From sequence record PV833354.1: 39,488 bases of DNA. One strand, given 5' to 3'. The position numbers and the translations under genes are program-made. Positions 20,208-21,001 of the stretch are shown here, in pieces (within the stretch, counting starts at the first letter, position 1; each line of letters begins with the position of its first letter). The notes under the pieces are model-generated. The model was given only the letters and a program-made list of their open reading frames with translations, had not been told where the DNA came from and ran no database searches. The stretch comes from Escherichia phage vB_Eco_ZCEC02.

Positions 20208-20774
20208 ATGGCTCAATACATTCCACTGAACGCTAACGATGACTTAGATGCCATCAACGATATGTTAGCTGCTATAGGTGAACCAGCAGTCCTACAGCTT
20301 GACGAGGGTAACGCTGACGTCTCTAACGCTCAACGTATCCTACATCGTGTCAATCGTCAGGTCCAAGCTAAAGGCTGGAACTTTAACATCAACGAAGCTG
20401 CTGTCCTGACACCTGATGTCCAAGACAATAGGATTCGATTCTTGCCGTCATACCTTCGTGTAATGACCGCTGGGGCCACCAGCTACTACAGCAACATGGG
20501 TGGATACCTGTACGACCTGTCCACTCAGTCGACCACTTTCACCGACCCTATCACGGTAGAGCTTGTGGAGATGAAGCCATTCTCAGAGATGCCTGTGGTC
20601 TTCAGGGACTACATCGTTACCAAGGCCAGCCGTGAGTTCAACGCTAAGTTCTTCGGTAGCCCAGAGTCTGAACTGTACCTTCGTGAGCAGGAAGCAGAAC
20701 TCTATCAGCAGGTCATGGAATACGAGATGGATACTGGTCGCTACAACATGATGTCCGACATAGGGAGAGACTAA
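20208..20774 (+). CDS. 11: tail tubular protein A (188 aa)
   Basis: Matches T7 gp11 (ASIGEP, NRQ.Q..GW.FNI, FR.YIVTKASR.FN..FFG.PE, MEYEMD.G.YNM). Confidence 0.95.
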   Translation: MAQYIPLNANDDLDAINDMLAAIGEPAVLQLDEGNADVSNAQRILHRVNRQVQAKGWNFNINEAAVLTPDVQDNRIRFLPSYLRVMTAGATSYYSNMGGYLYDLSTQSTTFTDPITVELVEMKPFSEMPVVFRDYIVTKASREFNAKFFGSPESELYLREQEAELYQQVMEYEMDTGRYNMMSDIGRD

Positions 20775-21001
20775 TGGCTAGTCACAACCTGAAGATTCAC
20801 CGCCAGCACTTTGGTCCGGTACAACTAGGTCTAAAGACAGCAGAGCTGAGACTTAACGACAGGGACTTTAAGGTTGGCGATTGGCTTATCCTGAATGAGT
20901 GGGACAACGGGTATACTGGACAACAGGTAGCACGTAAGGTTGTCCACATTGCTGACGTTGGTGACATCGCTGAGGGATACGTCCTAATGAGTATGATCTA
21001 A
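20774..21001 (+). CDS. DUF3850/ASCH-like small protein (75 aa) inserted between genes 11 and 12
   Basis: LKIHRQHFGPVQLGLKTAELRLNDRDFKVGDWLILNEW...YTGQQVARKVVHI fits my recollection of the DUF3850 pattern; ATG overlaps the gene 11 stop (TAATG); T7 has no gene here. Confidence 0.65.
   Translation: MASHNLKIHRQHFGPVQLGLKTAELRLNDRDFKVGDWLILNEWDNGYTGQQVARKVVHIADVGDIAEGYVLMSMI

Follow-up and report, generated by a model that had tools for sequence, protein, structure and literature searches.

A common, dispensable DUF3850/ASCH-like gene inserted between tail genes 11 and 12 of Kayfunaviruses

The window, by which we mean the whole 39,488-nt stretch of Escherichia phage vB_Eco_ZCEC02 DNA that was analysed (PV833354.1), constitutes a complete Kayfunavirus genome of the T7 type (K1F-like; Autographiviridae, Studiervirinae), with ~94–96% nucleotide identity to the E. 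coli phages HC13, LS3 and ECG4. Its tail genes 11 (tail adaptor or tail tubular protein A, 188 aa; 20208..20774, + strand; PF17212, E 3.6e-46; PHROG 446) and 12 (nozzle or tail tubular protein B, 785 aa; 21011..23368, + strand; PF25675, E 0; PHROG 457) are separated by an ATG-initiated ORF on the same strand (20774..21001), here 'gene 11.5', which encodes a DUF3850/ASCH protein of 75 aa, 8.5 kDa and pI 6.4. The gene 11 stop codon (TAA, 20772–20774) and the start codon of the ORF (ATG, 20774–20776) have one base in common, forming a TAATG overlap, and the Shine-Dalgarno sequence of the ORF, GGGAGAG (20763..20769, + strand), is formed by a Gly-Arg codon pair (GGG AGA) close to the gene 11 stop. 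Sequence inspection placed that of gene 12, GGAGGG (21002..21007, + strand), within the 9-nt spacer 3' of the gene 11.5 stop. No other + strand ORF of at least 40 aa overlaps the gene, and an antisense 56-aa ORF (20797–20967) was disregarded because genomes of the T7 type are not transcribed from that strand. The T7 counterparts of the two tail genes (gene 11 up to 24818, gene 12 from 24842) are 23 nt apart, and no feature is annotated in the gap; the ORF is an insertion relative to T7. An earlier sequence-only reading, which had described a 75-aa ORF wedged with a TAATG overlap into a junction that is contiguous in T7, was thus accurate in each of these respects.

To locate transcription signals we used a phage promoter consensus, CTAAACTATCACTATAGGRA, derived from the promoters annotated in PE3-1, which has 11 matches in the window versus 0 expected. 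Exact matches upstream correspond to T7 phi9 (17727..17746, + strand), from which some of the late transcripts covering genes 11–12 originate, and to phi10, 5' of the major capsid gene (18715..18734, + strand), and the first promoter downstream of the gene 11–12 unit is the phi13 equivalent (23394..23413, + strand), with one mismatch to the consensus and the same placement as phi13 in T7. Between 18715 and 23394 no phage promoter was found, and sigma-70-like matches were at chance level. Likewise, no terminator flanks the ORF, the sole good one being a GC-rich hairpin followed by a T run upstream of gene 11, at its boundary with the capsid genes (20156..20193, + strand), which is matched by the annotated 'phiTE' of PE3-1 and by T7 Tphi. 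Since neither promoters nor this terminator adjoin the ORF, genes 11, 11.5 and 12 form one read-through unit, as genes 11–12 do in T7, and gene 11.5, with no promoter of its own, is carried on the late Tphi read-through mRNA.

The composition of the ORF (GC 0.489, GC3 0.533, CAI 0.681) is close to that of the remaining ORFs of the window (GC 0.502 ± 0.026, GC3 0.552 ± 0.060, CAI 0.698 ± 0.055). The 'somewhat atypical codons' noted initially were therefore not borne out, all three values being within 0.5 sd of the genome's genes, and codon or GC bias was discarded as a sign of recent foreign origin. By the same token, the designation 'moron' holds if it loosely means an accessory insertion with patchy presence among close relatives and fails if it means an autonomous unit, given the ordinary composition and the lack of a flanking promoter or terminator. 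Gene 11.5 is not an autonomous moron, and its translation is coupled to that of gene 11, without signals of its own.

Assignment of the protein to a family was unequivocal. It matches PF12961 (DUF3850) with 70.1 bits (cut-off 22.9), residues 4–73 covering positions 2–76 of the 77 in the profile, and the ASCH profile PF04266 with 26.2 bits (cut-off 21.2), scores far above chance that uphold the DUF3850/ASCH-like pattern of the sequence-only reading. Further matches were to PHROG 986 (E 2.8e-35) and to PDB entry 3IUW (E 1.2e-10 for the sequence alone, 3.9e-19 for a 21-orthologue profile), an 83-aa Enterococcus faecalis protein from structural genomics ('activating signal cointegrator') and the one relative by sequence whose structure has been solved; NCBIfam returned no match. 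The AF2 model (pLDDT 84) has no helix beyond residue 17 and is least confident in the conserved loop 21–30 (mean 59). The ASCH octapeptide GxKxxExR occurs as G19-L-K21-T-A-E24-L-R26, and the DUF3850 signature (H4, K21-T22, E24, R26, N28-D29-R30, G35-D36 and E42) is complete. With above-threshold, full-length PF12961 coverage, the signature residues, the 3IUW fold and the octapeptide all present, the protein is a minimal single-domain ASCH/PUA-like beta-barrel of the DUF3850 family. No family-defining difference sets it apart from 3IUW, although the late tail operon in which its gene lies is unusual compared with the early or replication modules that house other members.

The signature residues are invariant or near-invariant in both alignments that we built, with K21, T22, E24, R26, N28, D29, R30, G35 and E42 invariant in 21 orthologues, and H4, K21, E24, R26, N28, D29, R30, D36 and E42 invariant in 69 distant multidomain relatives. 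So dense a polar constellation within 75 residues points to a probable specific ligand pocket or active site more than to a scaffold.

By tblastn, 154 phage records encode the protein at ≥80% identity, and overall the gene was present, always in the same slot, in about 154–165 of the ~220 records that bear gp11. With 154 records carrying the gene and ~220 a close gp11, some 70% of sequenced Kayfunaviruses have it. The copy in Kosakonia phage Kc166A is 67% identical, and those of PE3-1, Pkp-1 and others, with 100% amino acid identity, the same gp11/gp12 slot and the same TAATG overlap, are the same gene as that of the window. Public labels vary, from 'RNA-binding protein' in PE3-1 (YP_009044285.1) to 'DUF3850 domain-containing protein' in FFK3 and 'activating signal cointegrator' in JSS1, the first of these being a transferred annotation rather than an experimental result. 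The gene is an already known, common, dispensable and annotated feature of the genus, found in more than 150 public Kayfunavirus genomes.

The survey of relatives that the sequence-only reading had called for was also carried out base by base at 25 loci, 15 of which have the gene, and it distinguished three types of gene 11–12 junction. At nine loci (type A, T7-like) the gene is absent and the junction reads GGT CGA GAC TAA TAGGAGGTGAT ATG, with AGC CGA in one of them. Gene-bearing loci (type B) read GGG AGR GAC TAATG. In type C, seen in L002 (ZG49) and K1F, the gene is again absent and TAATG runs straight into gene 12 (ATT GGG AGR GAC TAATGCC). With a junction-spanning query, type C was recovered as one contiguous match in 26 GenBank records, including K1F, ZG49, YZ1, Pipis and PhiNW-B1, all of them with a precise deletion, and in ZG49 and K1F gp11 is 100% and gp12 97% identical to the window. 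The hexamer GGGAGR at the end of gene 11 is present in 15/15 gene-bearing loci and in both type C junctions (L002, K1F) and in 0/9 type A loci, which have GGT CGA (eight) or AGC CGA (one) at this synonymous-codon site. The Shine-Dalgarno sequence of gene 11.5 is thus encoded by the closing codons of gene 11 and covaries perfectly with the history of the insertion.

The order of events can be read from the most divergent copies. At loci L013 (copy 85% identical) and L024 (45%), the gene 11.5 stop is followed by the native type A spacer, as GGAGGTGATATG or GGAGGTGCTATG, so that the spacer of gene-free phages (GGAGGTGAT / GGAGGTGCT) is retained before gene 12; the gene was therefore placed downstream of the gene 11 stop and ahead of the ribosome-binding site that gene 12 had originally (A to B). 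Junctions of type C retain GGGAGR, which is meaningful only with the inserted gene, and occur only in a shallow E. coli clade, and thus represent a secondary, scar-free loss (B to C). The converse, with the fused K1F-type junction as the ancestral state, was rejected on the same two counts and because the deep branches Kc166A, L013 and L024 carry the gene after the native spacer. We also considered whether a 15-nt repeat (TAAGGAGGGCCTATG) that precedes both gene 11 and gene 12 marks the ends of a cassette, and rejected this as a general feature, given that L013, L024 and Kc166A differ there.

Among 13 close gene-bearing genomes, dN/dS was ~0.14 for gene 11.5, 0.02 for gene 11 and 0.05 for the start of gene 12, and the comparison of the window with L013 gave 0.12 for gene 11.5. 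Values of 0.12–0.14 indicate that the protein is constrained, if more loosely than the tail proteins. Positions that are otherwise invariant have private changes in L007 (R30L) and L005 (D31G). Synonymous diversity behaved differently from that of the neighbours: pS of gene 11.5 was 0.0895, below all 56 equal-sized segments of genes 11 and 12 (minimum 0.14, median 0.24), relative to which its non-synonymous diversity was typical, leaving a pN/pS three times that of the flanking genes. Nucleotide diversity drops to ~0.03 exactly over the gene versus ~0.06 in the flanks. RNA structure was examined as a source of the low synonymous diversity and discarded, since the fold of 20760–21025 is not unusual (z = -1.17). 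This pattern of variation suggests, in its simplest reading, that one allele spread recently via recombination among already diverged E. coli and Salmonella Kayfunaviruses. At greater depth, between the window and L013, dS of gene 11.5 (0.90) agrees with that of gene 11 (0.76), which fits an old insertion.

Two stand-alone PUA-like barrels, the ASCH N4-acetylcytidine amidohydrolases YqfB of E. coli and EOLA1 of humans, provide the closest guide to what the conserved pocket might do. With hhalign, GLKTAELR of the window protein aligns on GRKTITIR of YqfB, K21/K21, E24/T24 and R26/R26 being the corresponding pairs, in a match that spans YqfB residues 10–49 only. In YqfB/EOLA1, K21, E24/T24 and R26 form the pocket for the acetyl group of N4-acetylcytidine (ac4C), and an R26A change abolishes ASCH enzyme activity (bioRxiv 10.64898/2026.08.01.741249; PMC9599836). 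The ligands of YqfB are nucleosides, not RNA (PMC9599836). The window protein shares with both the single-barrel architecture and the identical positions of K21 and R26, and with YqfB its non-basic charge (pI 6.4; median pI of the orthologues 6.2, net charge about -1), which argues against generic nucleic-acid coating. In its E24 it resembles EOLA1 and the TRIP4-like clade, whereas YqfB has the nucleophile T24. It is, moreover, 28–80 residues shorter than YqfB/EOLA1, without the helical insert or an E74 equivalent, and the invariant H4, N28-D29-R30 and D36 are DUF3850's own. Of the residues expected of a YqfB-type amidohydrolase, Lys21 and Arg26 are thus present, while position 24 has no Thr/Ser nucleophile and Glu74 is missing from a protein that ends at residue 75. 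Lacking the E74 helical insert and with E24 in place of T24, the protein is not a YqfB-type enzyme by membership, and the amidohydrolase reaction is not simply transferable to it. More remote are the PUA-superfamily modified-base readers YTH, EVE, SRA and the McrB N-terminal domain (5–14% identity), which use aromatic cages and are mostly fused to effector domains, in contrast to the charged K/E/R/N/D/R pocket of DUF3850 and to the bare domain found here.

Beyond Kayfunavirus, DUF3850 is a large family (5,324 clusters at 50% identity, E 1e-3 or better) for which we found no biochemically characterized member in the literature. Its fusion partners include DUF551 and a dATP/dGTP pyrophosphohydrolase, and ParB-CTPase-DUF3850 fusions, for which an anti-defence role has been proposed, are enriched in prophages (PNAS 2025, PMC12704722); one such fusion, the Clostridium phage Saumur 'ParB-like partition protein', was among our matches. 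These fusions contain the same domain and are also phage-borne, but are multidomain, bind CTP via the ParB fold and are paired with parA, whereas the window gene has no parA or parB neighbour. In P2-like, Bas80, T1-like and Listeria phages, homologues are found outside the tail modules, among early or replication genes, their neighbours in the four groups being P2 gene A and a DNA methyltransferase, a primase, a polynucleotide kinase, and SSB with a resolvase; the P2-like homologue is in a variable region and adjoins the DNA methyltransferase and a ParB-N protein. That Kayfunavirus carries the gene in its tail operon is thus a matter of where it happened to insert and provides no clue to a tail function.

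The reading that we favour, at roughly even confidence, is that gene 11.5 is a real, non-essential Kayfunavirus accessory gene whose product acts late and inside the cell as a non-structural binder or hydrolase of a modified base or nucleotide, with a benefit that is conditional on the host. Inserted directly 3' of the gene 11 stop and 5' of the native gene 12 ribosome-binding site, the gene would be translated late and in step with gp11, and its product would act in the infected cell rather than in the tail. The K21-E24-R26 pocket, together with H4, N28-D29-R30, D36 and E42, may accommodate a nucleobase that is modified or flipped out, or else a nucleotide or nucleoside in free form. By analogy with YqfB and EOLA1 acting on N4-acetylcytidine, the ligand might then be read or have a substituent hydrolysed, and the host-dependent benefit could be counter-defence or clean-up of the nucleotide pool. 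For a protein of counter-defence or nucleotide metabolism, late expression tied to a tail gene is, all the same, unusual.

A narrower version of this reading, which we consider unlikely, is that the protein is a counter-defence factor, either produced late or carried in the particle and injected along with the DNA, that masks, reads or removes a base modification, or sequesters or hydrolyses a nucleotide-derived signal. Patchy presence among near-identical phages with repeated loss, the signs of recent spread of one allele, and the P2-like homologue beside a DNA methyltransferase and a ParB-N protein would all be in keeping with it, as would the recurrence of ASCH and EVE domains as modified-base readers in restriction-modification and toxin-antitoxin contexts, relatives that, with YTH, are described as such in the literature. 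The anti-defence role proposed for the prophage-enriched ParB fusions (PMC12704722) points the same way. Against it, PADLOC returned only PDC-M07B (E 0.007, 14 bits), which we treated as noise. Furthermore, the known anti-defence genes of the T7 group are early genes, and the DNA of Kayfunavirus is not known to be modified. An accessory-gene screen (preprint 10.1101/2023.04.06.535777) makes no mention of ASCH, PUA or gp11, and our literature search found no support for an anti-defence role of the DUF3850 gene. An extension of this idea, improbable in our estimation, would make DUF3850 a minimal ASCH enzyme or sponge directed against host immunity that, placed in the Kayfunavirus tail operon, is produced late, is possibly packaged and protects the next infection from its outset.

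Nucleotide salvage, in which the protein would deacylate N4-acetylcytidine, or a modified nucleoside related to it, from phage-degraded host RNA and DNA, appears more doubtful still. It draws on the K21/E24/R26 triad, as in EOLA1, which is reported to be a deacetylase of free ac4C (bioRxiv 10.64898/2026.08.01.741249), on the acidic-to-neutral charge, like that of YqfB, and on the family member fused to a dATP/dGTP pyrophosphohydrolase. It is weakened by the absence of the E74 region, the protein being 28 residues short of YqfB and devoid of the helical insert, and by the additional invariant residues (H4, N28-D29-R30 and D36), which suggest another chemistry or ligand. Mouse EOLA1 activity, moreover, was undetected in vitro in a separate structural study (cited in bioRxiv 10.64898/2026.08.01.741249), and ac4C would be scarce in E. 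coli, so that we would expect the gain for a phage to be small.

A helper of tail assembly or a minor virion protein acting with gp11 and gp12 would explain both the position inside the gene 11–12 unit and the translational coupling through TAATG, and adjacency to gp11 leaves room for such a role, yet we judge it very improbable. A structural protein would be conserved wherever the tail proteins are the same, and gene 11.5 is absent from K1F, ZG49, SH3, SH4, Dev2 and T7. A required structural part, for which the sequence-only reading had seen no obvious role, is made very unlikely by K1F, ZG49 and ~20 other viable phages that precisely lack the gene and have gp11 and gp12 97–100% identical to those of the window. 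Because these natural deletion variants, and sister lineages such as SH3, SH4 and Dev2, build tails from the same gp11 and gp12, and T7 too assembles its tail without the gene, a tail or virion role is unlikely, and it is at odds too with invariant polar residues that correspond to the ASCH ligand pocket and with homologues that lie outside tail modules elsewhere. The virion proteomics that we found in the literature deals with eight excised gel bands only, for phage B1, and with SH3 and SH4, which are gene-free phages; a search for papers joining 'activating signal cointegrator' to 'tail tubular protein' returned none. Finally, a functionless passenger or decaying remnant hitch-hiking in an essential operon, to which dispensability, the private missense changes R30L (L007) and D31G (L005) and the threefold pN/pS could be ascribed, is scarcely credible against a dN/dS of 0.12–0.14 in shallow and deep comparisons alike, an intact frame in 15/15 copies, a pocket invariant across 21 orthologues down to 47% identity, and a dedicated Shine-Dalgarno sequence kept through codon choice in gene 11.

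The gene itself is no discovery, its domain family having been in Pfam and the PDB for years, and the additions made here are modest: the insertion-then-loss order, the Shine-Dalgarno sequence in gene 11 codons, the frequency of scar-free deletion, and the low synonymous diversity. A ribosome-binding site encoded in the codons of a neighbouring gene is a small example of how a compact phage genome accommodates an inserted gene. For the conserved K-E-R pocket, biochemical precedent now exists in YqfB and EOLA1, and ac4C salvage is a concrete hypothesis that is cheap to test. Were the protein to act against host immunity, the K1F-type deletions would be a ready isogenic system for a family of more than 5,000 clusters whose members are also found fused to ParB CTPases. 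More generally, natural Kayfunaviruses with and without the gene and with near-identical flanks offer a route to a first function for the large, phage-enriched DUF3850 family.

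In another Kayfunavirus (locus L024), the slot between genes 11 and 12 that holds the DUF3850/ASCH accessory gene in the window is occupied by a second, very divergent DUF3850 allele (L024 positions 4067–4291; 45% identity, 26.6 bits). The initial 14 nt of this allele are identical to those of the window gene (ATGGCTAGTCAT, plus TA of the TAATG overlap with the gene 11 stop codon), E24 is replaced by D24, and the H-x-L-K and N-D-R motifs are gone. This allele could be the product of a cassette replacement, or its function could be relaxed or altered. Inserts were also found around this slot: in several close relatives, ~100 nt of additional sequence lies between the terminator Tphi and gene 11, recognised from two-piece matches and an alignment gap, and Enterobacter phage B1 has a further 158-aa ORF between its 75-aa DUF3850 gene and gene 12. 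Small insertions appear to have a hot spot in the gene 10–12 interval.

The same 15 nt (TAAGGAGGGCCTATG) precede both gene 11 (window 20196–20210) and gene 12 (20999–21013). This identity is limited to the E. coli clade, with other sequences standing before gene 12 in L013, L024 and the gene-bearing relative Kc166A, and it could reflect a small gene conversion, or two sites converging by chance on a strong ribosome-binding site.

Immediately downstream of the major capsid gene, and overlapping its stop codon by 1 base, lies an 87-aa ORF (window 19888–20151, + strand; PHROG 7473) for which no Pfam match was found. No other stretch comes close to it in variability among the close relatives compared: its nucleotide diversity is ~0.33, versus ~0.06 in the adjoining genes.

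Between genes 13 (window 23445–23906) and 14 (24326–24880), the window carries a 149-aa Endonuclease VII/HNH-type ORF (23840–24289, + strand; PF02945, E 1.9e-16; PHROG 2633), which overlaps the 3′ end of gene 13. PE3-1, by contrast, has gene 14 directly after gene 13; the ORF is probably an inserted free-standing homing endonuclease.

The tailspike gene (window 31131–33986, + strand) is atypical in composition, with GC 0.463 and GC3 0.414 compared to 0.50 and 0.55 for the genome, and joins a T7 tail-fibre N-terminus to a TSP1/Gp66 N-terminal domain and a C-terminal Peptidase_S74 chaperone. This composition and domain combination are consistent with a swapped-in receptor-binding module. Five related loci (L010, L014, L015, L017 and L019) have the T7-like type A junction, in which genes 11 and 12 are separated by a spacer and the DUF3850 gene is lacking; relative to the window, their tail adaptor gp11 is 97–98% identical and their nozzle protein gp12 only ~74% identical. 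This pattern indicates recombination breakpoints at, or just within, the 3′ end of gene 11, with nozzle alleles exchanged in mosaic fashion.
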